From Patescibacteria group bacterium (GTDB taxonomy: Bacteria; Patescibacteriota; Patescibacteriia; Buchananbacterales; UBA6539): a DNA stretch of 64,000 bases. The stretch covers positions 236,190-300,189 of the forward strand of contig JAVEXP010000001.1 of the NCBI GenBank assembly GCA_034003985.1, in the 5' to 3' direction. A model generated the notes under the pieces. The model was not told the DNA's origin. It saw only the letters and a program-made list of their open reading frames with translations, and did not search any database. This document shows, piece by piece, positions 16,666 through 27,620 of this stretch. Position 1 is the first letter of the stretch; each line of letters begins with the position of its first letter. The position numbers and the translations under genes were made by a program.

Positions 16666-17856
16666 TTATTGGTTAAGAGTATACCGGCCATCCGGCAGCT
16701 TGGTGATTTTGTCTTTATTAGTCAAAGCCAAATAAATAGTGCTTTTGCGAACGATTCTTTGATCGGAAACGGCTTTAACGATTTCTTCTTTGGTCATGGG
16801 GTGATTGGCATTTTTAAGAATTTCAACAATTGTATCCATAACTGTTCCTGGTTTATAGCCCCATTCTTTAAGGGCATAAATACCGCGGCCGACCAGGACA
16901 TAGCGGTCGTCTAAAATGAGTTCATTGTGGATGGTAGCCGGGTAGGCGATTTTTTTATCAAAATTAGTTTGATTGATTAATTCGGTAATTTCAGTAAAAT
17001 GAAGAGGCCGGCCGGCTTTTTTTAAGACCAAATAAACTTTATCGCTCATTCTTTTTGGTCGAACCGTATTCCATTTATTCAATCCCCATTCTCCAAGGAT
17101 ATTTTGATCAATGTGGCGGCTGATTTTTAAGTAAGACTTAACAGCATTATTGATTTCTTCATCCAATCTATCGTGATCAGAGCCAATTTTTAGAGACGCC
17201 AGGTTATCCTGGTTGTTGACATAAAATTCGCTTTGACGAAAAGTACCAATCAGATCCTCGGTAGCCAGGAGTTTATTTTGAGAATTAATGATGCCAACTA
17301 ATTCATTAATAGATTTTTTGACCAAATCAATTGGTACTAATGGGAGTTTCCAGCCGGTAAGGATGTCTTGATCAGATTTGATGCGATGGATTTTGTCGTT
17401 TAGTAATTTGGACAAAATAAAATTAGAGGATTCATAATTCCCTTTTTCAGAATTAGTGTTGGTGATTTGATCCAGGAGGTGATATTCTTCCATTATGCCG
17501 CCATGTTTTTCCAGTAGGTGAATAATGTGTTGTTCGGCTGTTGAAAGTTCATTTTTTAAATCTTTTAAATCATGGAGTTTTTTAACTGTGGCGGTTTCAA
17601 TCTGTCTAATGCGTTCTCTGGTGATATCGTAATATTTTCCAATTTGTTCCAAGGTTTCCTTGTCTTTGCCCATTAAACCAAATCGACGACTTAAAATATC
17701 GCTTTCTTTGGTTGAAAGATTTTTCAGCAAATTGGCCACCAGGTCGTTTGGATTGAACTGAGCTGCTTGATATTTTTCCTGGCTTTCAATTATTTTGTCT
17801 AGAATTGAATTCTGTGGGTTCATATAAATATTGTAATTTTGACTAAAATAAGACAA
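16666..17856 (-). CDS. Putative transcription factor: sigma-70 region-4-like HTH followed by two winged-helix (HARE-HTH-like) segments
   Basis: LSTKESDILSRRFGLMGKDKETLEQIGKYYDITRERIRQIETATVKKL (sigma-70 r4 pattern). C-terminal ...RPLHFTEITELINQ... and ...HPMTKEEIVKAV... segments resemble RpoE-delta/HARE-HTH. Confidence 0.5.
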   Translation of the reverse strand: MSYFSQNYNIYMNPQNSILDKIIESQEKYQAAQFNPNDLVANLLKNLSTKESDILSRRFGLMGKDKETLEQIGKYYDITRERIRQIETATVKKLHDLKDLKNELSTAEQHIIHLLEKHGGIMEEYHLLDQITNTNSEKGNYESSNFILSKLLNDKIHRIKSDQDILTGWKLPLVPIDLVKKSINELVGIINSQNKLLATEDLIGTFRQSEFYVNNQDNLASLKIGSDHDRLDEEINNAVKSYLKISRHIDQNILGEWGLNKWNTVRPKRMSDKVYLVLKKAGRPLHFTEITELINQTNFDKKIAYPATIHNELILDDRYVLVGRGIYALKEWGYKPGTVMDTIVEILKNANHPMTKEEIVKAVSDQRIVRKSTIYLALTNKDKITKLPDGRYTLNQ

Positions 17857-18007: not shown

Positions 18008-18961
18008 TTATTTATTTGATCGCAATTTTTCCCAGGTTACCAACAGCGGACTGGCAAGAAAAATGGAAGAGTAAGTACCAACTGATATGCCGATGATCAA
18101 CGCCAGGACAAAATCGCGAATCGTTTGACCCCCAAACATCAGAATTGCAAACAAAACCAAAAGGGTGGTAAAGGAAGCATTGATTGAACGGGTGATAACT
18201 TCGTTGACGCTTTCTTCGACGATCTCTTCAAAATCCTGTCCCAAGCGCCGGACCAGATTTTCCCTGGTTCGGTCAAAAACGACAATTGTATCATTTACCG
18301 AATAACCAAGAATAGTCAGGAGGGCGGCGACAAATGGCGCATTGACTTCAATATTATAGAATTGACCTAATAGAATAAATACGCCAATGGTAATCATGAT
18401 ATCGTGGCCCAGGGCAATGACGGCGATAACCCCGTATTTCCAAGATGCCACCGGTTTTGATATTTTTCTGAAAGCCCAGGCGATGTAGACAATAATTGCC
18501 AAAATGACAATAATGGTGGCCCAGATGGTTTTTTCTCGCAATTCCTGGCCGATAACCGGACCGATTGAATCGAATTGTTTTTCTTCAAGAACCTTGGTTT
18601 GGAAATTGATGTTTATGCCCTCAAGATCAGATTCAATCTCGGGAGTATTAGGGCGCAATGACTGTTCAAGCGCGTCAATGATTTGCTGATGAGTTGTTTC
18701 ATCGATTTCTTTAAATCTTAAAATTAGCCCGGACTCACCTACTGGTTGAACGGTAATATTACCAATTCCCAATGGACTAAGAATCTCTTCAACTTTGGCG
18801 TTTGTTGGGCGGCTGACCAAAAAATCTAATTCCATCAAGGTTCCACCGGTAAAATCAATTCCCGGTTTAAGGCCGAAAATCAAAAAAGAAATGACAGACC
18901 CAAAGACTAATATACCCGATATGGAAAACCAAATTTTTCGTTTTTTAATCAAGGAAAACAT
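18008..18961 (-). CDS. secF: Protein translocase subunit SecF
   Basis: GIDFTGGT motif; 6-TM SecF topology; immediately downstream of secD. Confidence 0.88.
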   Translation of the reverse strand: MFSLIKKRKIWFSISGILVFGSVISFLIFGLKPGIDFTGGTLMELDFLVSRPTNAKVEEILSPLGIGNITVQPVGESGLILRFKEIDETTHQQIIDALEQSLRPNTPEIESDLEGININFQTKVLEEKQFDSIGPVIGQELREKTIWATIIVILAIIVYIAWAFRKISKPVASWKYGVIAVIALGHDIMITIGVFILLGQFYNIEVNAPFVAALLTILGYSVNDTIVVFDRTRENLVRRLGQDFEEIVEESVNEVITRSINASFTTLLVLFAILMFGGQTIRDFVLALIIGISVGTYSSIFLASPLLVTWEKLRSNK

Positions 18962-18963
18962 AT

Positions 18964-20676
18964 TTATTGTTTTTTCTTTGTCCCAAATAACCAGGGGCGG
19001 TTTAAGAATTTTATTCCCAAAATAATGTTTAGCAGGGATTTAGTCACAATCATGGCTGAAAACATGCTGATTAGAATACCAATAGATAAAGTGACGGCAA
19101 ATCCCTTGACTAAACTGGTGGTAAATCCCATCAGGATAAAACAAGTAATCAGAGTTGAGATATTGCCGTCAAAAATTGACGGCCAGGCTCTTTTGAATCC
19201 TTCATTTAGAGCAATGGTTAGGGGTTTGCCATTCTTTATTTCTTCTTTAAATCTTTCAAAAATCAGAATATTGGCGTCGACGGCCATACCGATGGATAAA
19301 ATAAAACCAGCAATTCCAGCCAAGGTCAGGGTTACCGGAATCATTTTAAAAACTGCCAGGATTATCAAGCCGTATATTAGCAGACTAGATACCGCCAACA
19401 GTCCGGGCAAGCGATAATAAAGAATCATGAAAATTGAAATAAGAATCAGGCCAATAATCCCGGCTCGCAGGCTTTTGGTAACTGACTCGTTGCCTAGTGA
19501 AGCACCAATAGTTTGCTGGGATATTAGATTAATCGGCACTGGCAAGGCGCCGGCGTTCAGGCGCTGAGCCAACAGTTTGGCTTCACTGATTGTAAAATTG
19601 CCGCTAATTACCGCCCGGCCGTCTGTAATTGCACTTTGGACAGTTGGCGTACTGATTGCGGTGCCGTCCAGAAAAATGGCAACCGGTCGGCCAATATTGT
19701 TTTTGGTGATTTCACCGAATAAATCTTTGCCCTCGTTATTGAATTCCAAAGCGACTTGCGGTGCCTGGGTATTGGGATCAAATTCAACCTGCGCTTTTTT
19801 GAGCTGAGTCCCGGTTAGTCCGGTGTATAGCCATTCATCATTCGGTGAACGGTAGTAGTCCGGGGTTCTTTTAAGAATTAGAATATGACGACAGCGGGTT
19901 TGAAAGTTTCCCGACTCATCTTCTTGTTCGGCTTCTTTTTTGATAATATGGTAACCAAAATCGGTTTCCACTAATTGAGGGGCAATTTGACCGACGGTTA
20001 GATCGTCAAAACAGCCTTTTTCGAACTCCGGAACAAACATTCCTCGGCTGACAAACCCCAGATCCCCTCCCTCGGTGGCGCTGCCGGCGTCTTCGCTTTG
20101 ATTTTTGGCAATTTCGGCAAATTGATCGGGGTTTTTAACAACCTCATTAAGAATATTTTGAGCCTTGGTAAGGGCTTGAGTATTATAATTATTTAGCTCT
20201 TGTTGCTGTTCGGGGGCAATATCAACGGTGGGATTCGGATTTAGCTCCTTGAATTCCAATAGCGGTGTTTCGCCAATCATACCGATGGCCTGATTAACAT
20301 CGGTGACCCCCGCTAATTCGACAATAATTCGCCAGCTATCCCCGGCTTTGGTAGTTTGAACCAAGGGTTCGGCCACGCCAAAAGAGTTTACTCGCCGTTC
20401 AATAACATCTCGGACTCCTTCAACGGCGCTATTGGCTTCTGAATTTGGTATCTGCGAAAGGTCGGCTTCATAAATCAAGTGGGTGCCACCTTGTAAGTCC
20501 AACCCCAAATGAAAAGGCAGGTCAAAGAAATCAGGAAGGGGTAGTCCAGTTTTTTTGATTTGACCGGAAAAATCTAAAAAGATTGCCAGTACGGTGATAA
20601 TGACAATCCCTAAGAAAGTCAAGCGATTTTTGTTTCTTTGTCCTATCATATTATAGAGATAAAAACATTTTAGCAA
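18964..20676 (-). CDS. secD: Protein translocase subunit SecD carrying an inserted parvulin-type PPIase-like segment in the periplasmic head
   Basis: SecD TM core (GLDLQGG..., C-terminal 6 TM). The insert DLGFVSRGMFVPEFEKGCFDDLTVGQIAPQLVETDFGYHIIKKE...RCRHILILK matches parvulin motifs. Confidence 0.85.
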   Translation of the reverse strand: MLKCFYLYNMIGQRNKNRLTFLGIVIITVLAIFLDFSGQIKKTGLPLPDFFDLPFHLGLDLQGGTHLIYEADLSQIPNSEANSAVEGVRDVIERRVNSFGVAEPLVQTTKAGDSWRIIVELAGVTDVNQAIGMIGETPLLEFKELNPNPTVDIAPEQQQELNNYNTQALTKAQNILNEVVKNPDQFAEIAKNQSEDAGSATEGGDLGFVSRGMFVPEFEKGCFDDLTVGQIAPQLVETDFGYHIIKKEAEQEDESGNFQTRCRHILILKRTPDYYRSPNDEWLYTGLTGTQLKKAQVEFDPNTQAPQVALEFNNEGKDLFGEITKNNIGRPVAIFLDGTAISTPTVQSAITDGRAVISGNFTISEAKLLAQRLNAGALPVPINLISQQTIGASLGNESVTKSLRAGIIGLILISIFMILYYRLPGLLAVSSLLIYGLIILAVFKMIPVTLTLAGIAGFILSIGMAVDANILIFERFKEEIKNGKPLTIALNEGFKRAWPSIFDGNISTLITCFILMGFTTSLVKGFAVTLSIGILISMFSAMIVTKSLLNIILGIKFLNRPWLFGTKKKQ

Positions 20677-20705: not shown

Positions 20706-22121
20706 TTAGTCGTTTTTTTGTTTTCTAAGGATATAATAACGGTTGTTGATTTCAATTAGTTCGTATTTTTTAGTTTGTTGATAAGCTTCCAGATATCGGT
20801 CAAAGCTTTCCTGGCTCGGAAAGCCAAATAAGTCCTGGCTGTCCATAATAACATAGTCAGCCAGTGTCTTTTCTTCCCCAGTCATTGCAATTGATTCCCG
20901 GTGAGTAAGATGAGCAACTAAATTGGTTTGAGCGGCCACGGAGGCGTCCGGTGGTATTAAACTAATGATTTTTTGATAGTCTTTGATTTTTGGATCAATA
21001 AATTTTTTCCAAGGGAAATTGATTGGGCTCAGCGGTGAGGTCCAAGCCATGGCAAAAATTGCCGTGGCAACCAAGCATTTGGTCGTGGTTTTTGACCATT
21101 GATTTCTGGCTTGAAATTTAGCAATAGCAATTACGGTTCCAATAAAAATGAACGGTATAAGAATGCTGTCATATTGATAGAAATTAACATATTGCAGTTG
21201 GAAGTTGGTCAGGAGGTTTTGCAATAGTCCGGGAGTCAAAAGAATTAGGCCGTCTAGGCTTAGTAAGGCAAGAAATCCGACAGGCAGGAATAATTTGATT
21301 AGGTAAGTAAATTTGCTCCAGGCAAATATTGTCTGCCAGGTCAGAGCCGGTTGAGTGATAACATTGATAATTATTTCACTGGCGTTGCCGCCAAATTGTG
21401 AATAGCGATCAAGTCGGACGATTCCTCCACCAAACCAGGGCATAATTATTTTGGCTACTAAGATAAAATAAATCAGGCTTAAAATTGAAACGGCCGCACC
21501 ATATTTTTGATTTTTAAAAAAAAGAATATATATCCCGACGAAGAAAACCGCTACAATCATATTTTCGGCAACGCTAGCAGTAAAAATTAAAAAAACCGAT
21601 GTCCAAAAATATTTTTTTTCTTCTAGGAAATAGAAGGCGGTAAATATTAACGGGATGGCGAACGGCACAGCGTGAAAATCAAACAAGTTGACCCATTGGA
21701 GTGATGGATGAATCAGATATAACCCGGCGATCAAAGTGCCAGCGGATTGGCCGATGATTTTTCGGGCGTAGAGGTAAAGTGGCCAAGCACCGAGGGCAAG
21801 AGCTAATGATTGAATAATTAAAAGCAGATAAGGACTTTGCCAAAAATAGTAGAACGGTACAATTAAAAATAGAAAAGGACTGAAATGAATGGCAAAGTGA
21901 CTTCCATTTTCAAAATTATTGAACATTATTTTACCGTGGACGGTATTGTAAAAAGATTGTTCAAATACCGCCAAATCCCAGGTTTGAGTTTGAAAAGTGT
22001 AGTGTCTGGCGCAACTAATCAGCGAGAATACTAAAAAATACAGCAGTGTAATAATAATAATTTTTTTGTATTTTTTGATAATCTTTCCCATACACAGGTT
22101 TTTCACAAAAAAACTTGACAA
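20706..22121 (-). CDS. DUF2079-family polytopic membrane protein (putative GT-C-like envelope glycosyltransferase)
   Basis: RHYTFQTQTWDLAVFEQSFYN...HFAIHFSPFLFL N-terminal signature. More than 10 TM segments and a C-terminal soluble domain. Confidence 0.55.
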   Translation of the reverse strand: MSSFFVKNLCMGKIIKKYKKIIIITLLYFLVFSLISCARHYTFQTQTWDLAVFEQSFYNTVHGKIMFNNFENGSHFAIHFSPFLFLIVPFYYFWQSPYLLLIIQSLALALGAWPLYLYARKIIGQSAGTLIAGLYLIHPSLQWVNLFDFHAVPFAIPLIFTAFYFLEEKKYFWTSVFLIFTASVAENMIVAVFFVGIYILFFKNQKYGAAVSILSLIYFILVAKIIMPWFGGGIVRLDRYSQFGGNASEIIINVITQPALTWQTIFAWSKFTYLIKLFLPVGFLALLSLDGLILLTPGLLQNLLTNFQLQYVNFYQYDSILIPFIFIGTVIAIAKFQARNQWSKTTTKCLVATAIFAMAWTSPLSPINFPWKKFIDPKIKDYQKIISLIPPDASVAAQTNLVAHLTHRESIAMTGEEKTLADYVIMDSQDLFGFPSQESFDRYLEAYQQTKKYELIEINNRYYILRKQKND

Positions 22122-23848: not shown

Positions 23849-24568
23849 TTAATTATTGGATTTTTTGGTCTGTTTGATTGAAAATTTAACCAAGGCGGTG
23901 ATTGAAGATATTATAGAAGAAAATACCAAGGATGTCAAAATAAAGATTGACTTTACGGAAGGCAAAATCGCCAACAAAACAAAGATTGAAGCGGGAAATA
24001 GGAGACTGTAAAGTTGCTCCTGTTTGGAAACTCTGCCGCGGCGTTCCCAAAAATTAATCAGGATTTCCGCAAAAAGATAGCCGGCGACAACCGCCGCCAT
24101 AAAGAGATTATGTTGGCCGATGTCTAAAAATAAAAATTTGGTATTAATAAAGTCCGGACGAGTGATGCTGGGATAAAGCAGATGAAGCTTGGCTTCACTG
24201 TTTATTCCTCCGACAAAAACTTGATAAAGCAAAACCAAGACCAAAAATTGCACTCCTAAAACAATGGCTTTGGCCCAAGGATGAAGCTTTCTTTTTTTTA
24301 AAGCCAGTCTGATCAGTTCTTTTTGCTTGACGGTATCACCGGTAAAATCTTTTCTAATCTTGGAAATTTCCTCCGATAATTGACTGCCGACAATTTTACT
24401 TTTCTCCGTCAGGATGGTGAATGGCAATAAAGCGATTCGCAGCATAATGGTGAGAATAATGACTGCCAATCCCAAATTAAAAAAGGCGTAGTTGATATAC
24501 AACCAAACCAAAAAATTAAACAGTGGTATATAGAGGTAGTATTCCCAAATGTAGGAAAATATTTCCAT
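23849..24568 (-). CDS. yidC: Membrane protein insertase YidC (short YidC/Oxa1 type)
   Basis: NLGLAVIILTIMLRIALLPFTI core. Start moved to MEIFSYIW (24568) because the ORF-track N-terminus overlaps tRNA-Gln. Confidence 0.8.
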   Translation of the reverse strand: MEIFSYIWEYYLYIPLFNFLVWLYINYAFFNLGLAVIILTIMLRIALLPFTILTEKSKIVGSQLSEEISKIRKDFTGDTVKQKELIRLALKKRKLHPWAKAIVLGVQFLVLVLLYQVFVGGINSEAKLHLLYPSITRPDFINTKFLFLDIGQHNLFMAAVVAGYLFAEILINFWERRGRVSKQEQLYSLLFPASIFVLLAILPSVKSIFILTSLVFSSIISSITALVKFSIKQTKKSNN

Positions 24569-24595
24569 GTAATTGTTTTTCTTTCCTCGCCACAG

Positions 24596-24666
24596 CTCGG
24601 AGGCCAGGGCTCGAACCTGGATTGACGGGACCAAAACCCGCTGTCCTACCATTAGACGACCTCCGA
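24596..24666 (-). tRNA. tRNA-Gln (anticodon TTG)
   Basis: Manual fold: acceptor TCGGAGG/CCTCCGA, D-arm GTCT/GGAC, anticodon stem GCGGG/CCCGT with loop TTTTGGT, T-arm CCAGG-TTCGAGC-CCTGG, discriminator G. CCA not encoded. Confidence 0.8.
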
Positions 24667-26558: not shown

Positions 26559-27620
26559 TCAAAGTCTGGCCAGCCGCCAGATTTTTTTGGTATTTTTAAG
26601 TTCATTAATGTAACCGTCAAGATCTTTTCCTCGGATTAAAATATGTCGAGCCCGGATTTGAGAAACATCGCCGGAGTCATCCATTAATTTTTCTTCAACT
26701 TTTATTACATGATACCCGAATTTTGTTTTGATAATCGGACTAATTTCTCCCGGTTCAAGATTAAAGGCCGCCTGTTCGAATTCTTCGGTCATCTGGCCGA
26801 TACTGAAATAACCAAGGTCTCCGCCTTGAACTCCCGTAATATCTTCACTGTACTGTTGAGCTACAGTTTCAAAATTGACGCCAGCTTGAAGTTTAGTGAT
26901 AACCGCTTCAATGGTTTTTTTGGCCTGCTGATTGAGATTATCGTCAGTCGCTACCACCCGCGATAATTTGTCTTTCAGGAGCAATGGTTTAATGATTTCA
27001 TTTTGAAATTCGGTGATATTCCAACCGTAAAGTTCATTGATCTGTTGTTCCAGTCCTTGGGAGCTGCCAACTTCATCAATCAATTTTTGCGTTTGTTGAT
27101 CAATGTCTTGGGAGGTGACTTCAATTTGGTAACTGTTAGATATTTGATCCATGATTTTGCGATCAATCATCCTTTCCATGATATGGCGCTGGATTTCCAA
27201 AATGGTCGGTACTGCCATGTCGGGATTTTTAATTTTTTCCCGCTGATAGAAATTTGTTAAGGTGGCTATTTGGTTTTGCCATTCATAATAAGGCAGTGGC
27301 TGATAGTCCACAATAGCCACTGGGTATGGGATTATTTTGGTAATTTTTGAGATTATTGGATTGGACCATTTAAAATAGCACAAGCTAAAACCAAATGCTA
27401 TAAAGACCAACGGAATGCCAACGGCTAAAGCAATAACGATGTATTTTATTTTGGCATTGTGGCGGAAAGGTGAAGACATTGGAGGTCTCGGAGTTGGTGA
27501 CAGCTTGGTAGTTTGAATTTTAGTATTGGTTTTTTTGGCATCAACCCATTTTAAAACAGCAGCGCGGAGATGGTCAATCTCGGCATCTTGGATATTTTCT
27601 TTTTGGTTTGGTAGTAACAT
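26559..27620 (-). CDS. Membrane-anchored parvulin-type peptidyl-prolyl isomerase (PrsA/PpiD-like foldase)
   Basis: N-terminal TM (IVIALAVGIPLVFIAFGF). C-terminal GGDLGYFSIGQMTEEFEQAAFNLEPGEISPIIKTKFGYHVIKVEE followed by ARHILIRGKD. Confidence 0.8.
   Translation of the reverse strand: MLLPNQKENIQDAEIDHLRAAVLKWVDAKKTNTKIQTTKLSPTPRPPMSSPFRHNAKIKYIVIALAVGIPLVFIAFGFSLCYFKWSNPIISKITKIIPYPVAIVDYQPLPYYEWQNQIATLTNFYQREKIKNPDMAVPTILEIQRHIMERMIDRKIMDQISNSYQIEVTSQDIDQQTQKLIDEVGSSQGLEQQINELYGWNITEFQNEIIKPLLLKDKLSRVVATDDNLNQQAKKTIEAVITKLQAGVNFETVAQQYSEDITGVQGGDLGYFSIGQMTEEFEQAAFNLEPGEISPIIKTKFGYHVIKVEEKLMDDSGDVSQIRARHILIRGKDLDGYINELKNTKKIWRLARL

Follow-up and report, generated by a model that had tools for sequence, protein, structure and literature searches.

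A SecD protein with a parvulin domain, predicted to be circularly permuted, in a Patescibacteria group bacterium

The secD gene of the window and its product

We analysed a 64,000-nucleotide (nt) stretch of DNA from a Patescibacteria group bacterium (contig JAVEXP010000001.1, positions 236,190 to 300,189), referred to here as the window, which encodes a SecD protein with a parvulin-like insert in P1, its large periplasmic domain. The secD open reading frame (ORF; 18964..20676, (-)) comprises 570 codons from a TTG at 20676. A public record (P0001) that is 100% identical to the window SecD starts nine codons after this TTG and has 561 amino acids (aa), and the ATG at 20649, rather than the TTG, is the likely start codon. 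The product is unambiguously a bona fide SecD, a translocase subunit of the resistance-nodulation-division (RND) superfamily: it scores 401.9 bits against the TIGR01129 equivalog model (cutoff 244.4), contains the Pfam domains SecD_1st, SecDF_P1_head, SecD_SecF_C and Sec_GG (E 2.6e-31 to 1.2e-4), and its AVDAN sequence aligns to AVDGN in Thermus thermophilus SecDF, the conserved transmembrane (TM) Asp motif. Two nt after the secD stop codon follows secF (18008..18961, (-); TIGR00966 289.3 bits, cutoff 160).

Along the protein, TM1 (residues ~16-41; 20554..20631, (-)) was recognised as a hydropathy segment at 16-41 and as a helix at 13-35 in the structural model. It is followed by the N-terminal part of P1, SecD_1st (residues 86-146; 20239..20421, (-); PF21760 E 2.6e-16), which lies in the region aligned to T. 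thermophilus SecDF 33-128, by the P1 head subdomain (residues 287-380; 19537..19818, (-); PF22599 E 2.6e-31, model positions 21-114), and by the TM2-TM6 bundle with the AVDAN motif (residues 383-550; 19027..19530, (-); PF02355 E 5.4e-14). The full-length AlphaFold2 model (predicted local distance difference test score (pLDDT) 87.9, predicted template-modelling score (pTM) 0.54) reproduces the layout of solved SecDF structures, in which TM1 leads into a large periplasmic P1 made up of base and head, with a five-helix bundle behind it. Its top PDB matches in Foldseek were 5xap (E 4.7e-23), 5xan, 3aqp and 5yhf (E 1e-22 to 1e-23); this full-length search of the PDB returned SecDF and RND transporters only, with no parvulin match for the insert.

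A parvulin domain between P1 base and P1 head

The insert was delimited by alignment to T. thermophilus SecDF, in which window residues 55-150 correspond to Thermus 33-128 and residues 287-553 to Thermus 160-426. The parvulin domain with its linkers (residues 151-286; 19819..20226, (-)), ~136 residues in total, stands in place of ~30 Thermus residues, and the Pfam P1_head match lacks the first 20 model positions. The flanking alignment together with a P1_head match that begins at model position 21 places the insert where the P1 base meets the P1 head, at the hinge and on the head's N-terminal edge. The initial annotation of this DNA had assigned it to the periplasmic head; it lies at this junction and not in the middle of the head.

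Residues 162-248 match the Pfam Rotamase family PF00639 (E 1.2e-19, 71.6 bits at a gathering cutoff of 21.7) as well as Rotamase_3 (E 5.2e-19), and when the insert alone was compared with PDB sequences, the best match was the Staphylococcus aureus PrsA peptidyl-prolyl isomerase (PPIase) domain 2jzv (E 1.3e-15), followed by SurA, PrsA, Par10 and Pin1. The core, with the elements α1-α2-α3-β2-α4-β3-β4 (residues 155-252; 19921..20214, (-); pLDDT 95-98), includes GGDLG (residues 203-207) and FGYH with His243. An AlphaFold2 model of the insert alone (residues 147-290, alignment of 58 homologues) had a pLDDT of 91.9 (core 96-98), a pTM of 0.83 and the element order H-H-H-E-H-(E)-E-E. Foldseek superposed it on 2jzv with a root-mean-square deviation of 1.1 Å over 85 columns (the α1-to-β4 core), a target-normalised TM-score of 0.71 and 44% identity, and the predicted model contains the four-stranded antiparallel sheet and four helices of the parvulin fold. 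By profile, sequence and predicted fold, this segment of SecD is a parvulin PPIase domain. It has no attached SurA_N chaperone module.

The initial annotation had proposed a foldase fused into SecD on account of parvulin motifs in SecD and in a separately encoded PrsA-like protein. Indeed, the strings that it quoted are present verbatim in both, with GGDLGFVSRGMFVPEFEKGCFDDLTVGQIAPQLVETDFGYHIIKKE at SecD residues 203-248 and RCRHILILK at residues 261-269, and with GGDLGYFSIGQMTEEF, FGYHVIKVEE and ARHILIRGK in the PrsA-like protein, and the profile and PDB matches are far beyond chance. The motif resemblance survives profile alignment, the predicted fold of the insert is that of a parvulin, and PF00639 is carried by all 120 best SecD homologues (51-71% identity), which come from many independent metagenomes; the fusion is thereby borne out.

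Predicted circular permutation of the inserted domain

In both window proteins the PF00639 match starts at model position 12, whereas the model itself begins with the catalytic β1 His at position 1. Instead of the canonical parvulin order β1-α1-α2-α3-β2-α4-β3-β4, the SecD insert has its β1 equivalent after β4, and the earlier remark that HILI follows GYHIIK in both proteins is correct, the HIL strand following β4. The displaced strand, here β1' (FQTRCRHILIL, residues 258-268, with Cys262 and His264; 19873..19905, (-)), is a strand in both models (pLDDT ~98), and β4 (residues 241-252) turns into it via a hairpin in the predictions, also when the insert is modelled alone. Between the P1-base strand (residues 140-145) and α1 (155-181) the SecD models have no strand, i.e., no upstream β1.

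To rescore the domains in canonical order, the trailing segment was moved to the N-terminus and compared with PF00639 and PF13616, with the same segment reversed as a control. De-permutation extended the PF00639 coverage of the SecD insert to positions 1-96 of 97, starting exactly at the His, and raised its scores against Rotamase and Rotamase_3 by 4.0 and 6.9 bits. The parvulin of the PrsA-like protein gained 6.4 and 8.1 bits, respectively, with coverage from position 1 (PF00639) or 14 (PF13616). Reversed-strand controls changed by -1.1 to +1.6 bits, the loss of 1.1 bits occurring in one of four comparisons. In addition, HMMER aligned the junction from β4 to RHILI of SecD with the junction between P1-β4 and P2-β1 of SurA, which identifies the trailing strand as a homologue of parvulin β1.

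Mean-field direct coupling analysis (DCA) of 207 unique single-unit domains from SecD and PrsA-like proteins placed an antiparallel β4-β1' ladder (248-263, 249-261, 251-259, 243-264) among the top 40 couplings. Nine non-local couplings connect β1' to β2 and the loop after it (205-261, 209-262, 210-259, 212-266, 214-262), to α4 (222-262, 222-260, 223-260) and to α1 (168-267). In established parvulin structures the sheet order is 2-1-4-3, with β1 and β4 as antiparallel neighbours. The simplest permutation is therefore a β4-β1 hairpin combined with an opened β1-α1 loop, and this opening would leave the new termini side by side, as suits a domain that is spliced into a loop of its host. The couplings are those to be expected if β1' sits in the β1 slot between β4 and β2, and we predict the single-unit SecD parvulin to be a true circular permutant, with its trailing strand in that slot. 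The initial annotation had left the choice between a circular permutation and a tandem remnant; both terms have a counterpart, as the single-unit domain is the predicted permutant and the two-unit relatives described below have a tandem arrangement from which a permutant could arise.

Conservation of the active site and a clade-specific cysteine pair

The active-site set of parvulins, consisting of the β1 His, the β4 His and an Asp or Cys in the GGDLG loop, is present in the SecD insert, and the His/His/Asp site is apparently complete as judged from the residues. Among 59 single-unit (short-form) SecD homologues, the trailing-strand His264 is kept in 58, and likewise the β4 His243. GG-D-LG and F-G-Y-H are conserved across this set, in which Asp205 is present in 47 of 59 proteins.

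Cys222 in α4 (20011..20013) and Cys262 (19891..19893), two residues ahead of His264, are the sole cysteines in the periplasmic part of SecD and constitute the top DCA coupling. Their occurrence is all-or-none: 61 of 121 single-unit domains carry both cysteines, the other 60 lack both, and a lone cysteine is never seen. Where the pair is absent, small or hydrophobic pairs such as I/S, L/S and V/A are found instead. The pair may form a disulfide or a buried contact that staples the displaced strand to α4 and the body of the domain. Of 40 diverse cluster representatives, only 1 has the pair, which was probably gained once, in a Buchananbacteria-like clade. Given this restriction, we take the co-occurrence as supportive and not as independent proof of contact.

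The fusion is widespread, and the number of parvulin units varies at one site

SecD-parvulin fusions were found in >120 clusters from NCBI, JGI, ENA and Logan assemblies, on contigs of up to 886 kb. GTDB species representatives contributed at least 21 loci, at least 19 of which are SecD fusions among the matches listed; the fusions come from Buchanan-, Moran-, Magasanik-, Kerfeld-, Uhr- and Peregrinibacteria as well as unclassified Parcubacteria and Patescibacteria, and the matches give no estimate of prevalence or absence of the fusion. Among the nearest 150 SecD clusters (50%-identity representatives, exhaustive search), a custom parvulin hidden Markov model (HMM) detected a parvulin unit in at least 66 and none in 84, the 66 being a lower bound as the HMM misses degenerate units. 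For example, P0280 and P0347 score zero by the custom HMM but have weak Pfam Rotamase matches, in line with degenerate remnants at the same SecD site. The fusion is thus widespread in Patescibacteria but not universal, and it is not peculiar to the genome of the window.

Three size classes of SecD share one insertion site: single-unit forms of ~560 aa, two-unit forms of ~685 aa and larger forms of 775-1100 aa. Two-unit forms have the order [α1..β4]-[β1-α1..β4]-[β1']. The Pfam match of their unit 2 already begins at model position 1, so that this unit has the canonical order. We scored the histidines at four strand positions (unit-1 β4, middle β1, unit-2 β4, trailing β1') and found the pattern -HH- in 52 of 58 two-unit proteins: the middle strand and unit 2 keep their His, and the unit-1 body and the trailing strand have lost both. 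In 57 of the 58, one unit or more retains both histidines. The -HH- pattern points to a nested arrangement, which we favour, with an intact canonical parvulin inside the hairpin of a degenerate permuted one; a serial arrangement, in which each unit would use the strand after it, appears less likely given the same pattern. Single- and two-unit SecDs differ by exactly one repeat length, in register, as expected from unequal crossing-over or from a duplication-and-truncation route to circular permutation. The two-unit forms accordingly look like duplication intermediates, and either form could be the ancestral one.

Five two-unit SecDs (P0060, P0066, P0082, P0058 and P0116) have a conserved C-x6-C (e.g., ICWSGAQSC, LICYKDALYC) in the loop from the middle β1 to α1 of unit 2, which could form a second extracytoplasmic disulfide. 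Further relatives have an enlarged P1 of 410-670 aa, with a parvulin and additional unassigned sequence at the same insertion site. They comprise P0289, P0314, P0323, P0333, P0359, P0369 and P0379 (775-940 aa), L015 (1030 aa) and L019 (1149 aa), and likewise P0264, P0273, P0298, P0300 and P0303 (~1015-1075 aa). The relatives of ~1000-1150 aa may be SecD-SecF fusions, as suggested by their length and by the three or four stretches in which they match. Domain accretion seems to have a hotspot at the base-head hinge of P1.

Several SecD-parvulin genes of the Patescibacteria type come from metagenome-assembled genomes that NCBI labels as other phyla, namely L002 (Lysobacteraceae), L007 (Binatia), L011, L020 and L021 ("uncultured Gammaproteobacteria") and P0082 (Bipolaricaulota). 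These labels probably reflect bin contamination or mislabelling, rather than spread beyond Patescibacteria. A locus of a different kind, without a fusion, was seen in a Prosthecochloris sp. metagenome-assembled genome (L016, RAZP01000019.1, 1..3235), where a 278-aa lipoprotein-like ORF comes immediately after secF and is in turn followed by the gene for a SurA-like protein of 441 aa that contains two parvulin units. As read from its gene order, this is a separate-gene, syntenic version of the SecDF-parvulin association in Chlorobi.

A free PrsA/PpiD-like protein with the same domain

The window also encodes a membrane-anchored PrsA/PpiD-like chaperone of 353 aa (26559..27620, (-); PF13624 E 7.6e-10, PF13616 E 2.4e-25). 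It has a single N-terminal TM segment (residues 55-85; 27366..27458, (-)), a SurA_N-like domain at 51-179 and a permuted parvulin at 227-334 (26619..26942, (-)), the latter with the β1' strand IRARHILIRGK (26625..26657, (-)) and 23 residues from the trailing strand to the C-terminus. This parvulin matches PF00639 at model positions 12-96 (E 3.9e-23), and its scores of 82.7 (PF00639) and 89.8 bits (PF13616) are above the gathering thresholds. Its identity to the SecD insert is 38% over 115 aa (E 7e-20), in an alignment that spans the hairpin and the trailing strand. No NCBIfam equivalog cutoff for PrsA, PpiD or SurA was reached (best score 70 bits against cutoffs of 343-493, those for PrsA being 343-361). 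With a score so far below these cutoffs, we describe the protein as PrsA/PpiD-like in architecture and not as a demonstrated orthologue; in its predicted layout it resembles a miniature PpiD more than the lipoprotein PrsA.

Among its best 120 homologues, whose named sources are all Patescibacteria, 107 have the β4 His followed by a trailing His strand, 101 have an N-terminal TM segment, and an upstream canonical HIL strand was found in none of the 120. The modal spacing between the two histidines is 22 in the PrsA-like homologues and 21 in SecD. Both proteins share the derived permutation and a similar hairpin length, which suggests a transfer of the domain between the two genes; the parvulin probably passed from SecD to the PrsA-like gene or the reverse, either direction being compatible with the data. 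The PrsA-like protein had been described as adjacent to SecD, which is incorrect: its gene lies 5.9 kb from secD, with eight protein genes, one same-strand tRNA gene and two opposite-strand tRNA genes between them.

A proposed role in coupling translocation to folding, and its alternatives

SecD, driven by protons together with SecF, would draw exported chains from SecYEG. Published models have the P1 head bind the polypeptide as it emerges and shift with the flow of protons (PMC9987972, PMC9643414). In the mechanism that we propose, the head would swing with proton flow and capture the unfolded chain leaving SecYEG, and the parvulin riding on it would meet and hold the chain at the exit and isomerise prolyl bonds while the chain is pulled out, with the trailing strand RCRHILIL supplying the second active-site histidine. 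The covalent fusion would provide a 1:1, always-present coupling of translocation and folding, for which other bacteria use separate PpiD, SurA or PrsA-type proteins. We consider it probable that this SecD carries a permuted Par10/PrsA-type parvulin at the P1 base/head hinge that couples translocation to folding. Within this reading, the architecture, the homology, the site of insertion, the conservation and the distribution are results of the analysis, the three-dimensional fold and the position of the trailing strand are predictions, and catalysis and substrate hand-over are what we infer.

Several points weigh against this reading. The pTM of 0.54 of the full-length model does not fix how the parvulin is turned towards the P1 head, and the sheet order 2-1'-4-3 is a prediction from secondary-structure strings, pTM and co-evolution. 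The effective depth of the DCA is small (Meff 180) and the analysis has no benchmark on a structure; moreover, its top coupling is the cysteine pair, which is limited to one clade (1 of 40 diverse representatives) and probably reflects a single gain. Within the active site, Ser replaces Asp205 in 7 of 59 short forms. The Pin1 pocket residues M130 and F134 would map to positions 213 and 217, where either the columns are not conserved or the mapping is off by one residue, and we make no claim of a proline pocket. Some membrane-associated parvulins have no PPIase activity, and the importance of the PpiD parvulin domain has been questioned (PMC9643414). Lastly, many Patescibacteria SecDs, e.g., from Azambacteria, have no insert, so that in this phylum SecD can evidently function without the parvulin.

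The strongest competitor, which we regard as unlikely, is that the insert is non-enzymatic, i.e., a docking or holdase module for substrates, or just a way of extending the P1 head and its polypeptide-binding surface, as has been proposed for SurA P1 and the PpiD parvulin. The doubts about PpiD fit this explanation, as do the two-unit forms in which one unit is without both histidines (52 of 58) and the degenerate remnants that P0280 and P0347 retain at this site, which would indicate a structural or binding role apart from catalysis. On the other hand, both histidines are present in 58 of 59 single-unit forms, together with GGDLG and FGYH, and in 57 of 58 two-unit forms both are still found in one unit or more; this retention in single- and two-unit forms is expected under selection for the active site. 

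A very improbable explanation is that the HILI strand is the leftover of a lost second parvulin, which would make the first domain β1-less and probably inactive. While the alignment of the junction to that between SurA P1 and P2 and the existence of two-unit SecDs are compatible with such a tandem remnant, the strand has a pLDDT of ~98 in the insert-only model (pTM 0.83), its His is conserved in 58 of 59 homologues, it co-evolves with β2, α4 and α1, and a parvulin without its central strand would expose its core. That the architecture results from an assembly or gene-calling artefact, such as a chimeric contig or read-through of two genes, is effectively refuted: although the source is a metagenome-assembled genome, we found no support for it, the parvulin lies within one uninterrupted ORF with SecD P1 sequence on both sides, and the same architecture recurs in >120 clusters from four sources and in at least 19 GTDB species representatives among the matches listed.

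Comparison with known systems

The closest known systems, with PpiD, SurA or the Mycoplasma dome, are non-covalent. One is the association of PpiD(-YfgM) with SecYEG/SecDF in Escherichia coli and Vibrio. In E. coli the partners are separate polypeptides that associate non-covalently, whereas the parvulin of the window belongs to the SecD chain itself, lacks a SurA_N module and is predicted to be circularly permuted. A small PpiD-like protein, in which an N-terminal TM segment precedes a SurA_N-like domain and a parvulin, is likewise encoded in the window. SurA, as part of the holo-translocon-SurA complex, has tandem parvulins, an inactive P1 and an active P2, and in this it is similar to the two-unit SecD forms. 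Its contact with SecDF is transient and known from low-resolution electron microscopy (EM) and AlphaFold, whereas the contact in the Patescibacteria lineage is covalent. In AlphaFold docking, the parvulin domains of SurA consistently settle on the P1 head of SecDF (Troman et al. 2023, PMC9987972, section 10). For Patescibacteria with the fusion, an outer membrane or a β-barrel assembly machinery (BAM) pathway to feed is not known.

The Sec translocon of Mycoplasma pneumoniae, with SecDF as a component, forms an obligate complex with PPIC lipoproteins that are homologous to PrsA (bioRxiv 10.1101/2025.04.25.650208, 10.1101/2024.09.05.611430), and substrate density touches the sole catalytically intact PPIC domain (bioRxiv 10.1101/2025.04.25.650208). 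This Sec "dome" (Mdp436/444/489) is likewise a case of a genome-reduced host with SecDF permanently coupled to parvulins over the SecYEG exit, and only one of its several parvulin units keeps the catalytic residues. However, the Mycoplasma parvulins reside on separate, very large dome-forming lipoproteins, whereas the lineage of the window has one or two small units inside SecD. The closest solved parvulin by sequence and structure is that of Firmicute PrsA (S. aureus 2jzv, Bacillus subtilis 4wo7). PrsA is a non-phospho-specific parvulin of the Par10/PrsA type that acts on secreted proteins outside the membrane, and the SecD insert would be another. Firmicute PrsA differs in its β1-first order and in having no SecD fusion; it is a dimeric lipoprotein that also contains an NC chaperone domain.

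Novelty and significance

SecD and parvulins are both well-known families, and public precomputed Pfam annotation already lists PF00639 on the fusion proteins, the records of which are named only "protein translocase subunit SecD". The novelty lies in how the two are combined, in the permutation and in the graded number of units found at a single site. Our literature search, outside of which most papers in subscription journals fell, found no paper on a SecD-parvulin fusion or on a circularly permuted parvulin. We give even chances to the broader view that Patescibacteria have made covalent a translocon-foldase hand-over that is otherwise transient and debated, with what is maybe the first natural parvulin permutant, and that relatives preserve a series of zero, one and two or more units including apparent duplication intermediates.

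How chains exiting SecYEG are handed over to periplasmic or extracellular folding factors is an open question, and evidence for contacts of SecDF with PpiD, with SurA and in the Mycoplasma dome comes from cross-links, EM at low resolution and docking by AlphaFold. The recurrent and conserved natural fusion is independent evolutionary evidence for a functional contact between parvulin and P1 head and points to the base-head hinge; if our reading is correct, it would serve as a "Rosetta stone" for the action of parvulin chaperones at the SecDF P1 head and as a minimal single-chain system for coupled translocation and folding. For structural and biochemical work, it offers a compact construct of defined stoichiometry. 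The permuted parvulin and the apparent duplication intermediates could become a case study of how a domain is re-wired for insertion into a host loop. They also call for caution in annotation, as Pfam Rotamase matches that start at model position ~12 may represent permuted rather than truncated domains. For the Patescibacteria, the fusion adds to the picture of small genomes that consolidate envelope functions.

Neighbouring genes

A gene for a polytopic DUF2079 membrane protein (20706..22121, (-); E 1.2e-72) lies 30 nt upstream of secD on the same strand, and the two may be co-transcribed. The genes from secD to the PrsA-like gene include, besides this one, those for Ham1, archease, a Band-7 protein, YidC, FtsX and FtsE, and tRNAs. 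Within this interval, YidC, FtsEX and DivIC are part of a one-strand cluster of envelope and division genes. The longest YidC-like ORF (23849..24652, (-)) runs at its 5' end into the tRNA-Gln gene (24595..24666, (-)), which indicates that the true YidC start is an internal Met, probably that of MEIFSYIW. Directly downstream of secF, a 396-aa protein (16666..17856, (-)) has an unusual architecture that combines Sigma70 region 4 (E 2.6e-12) with HARE-HTH (E 2.6e-8).

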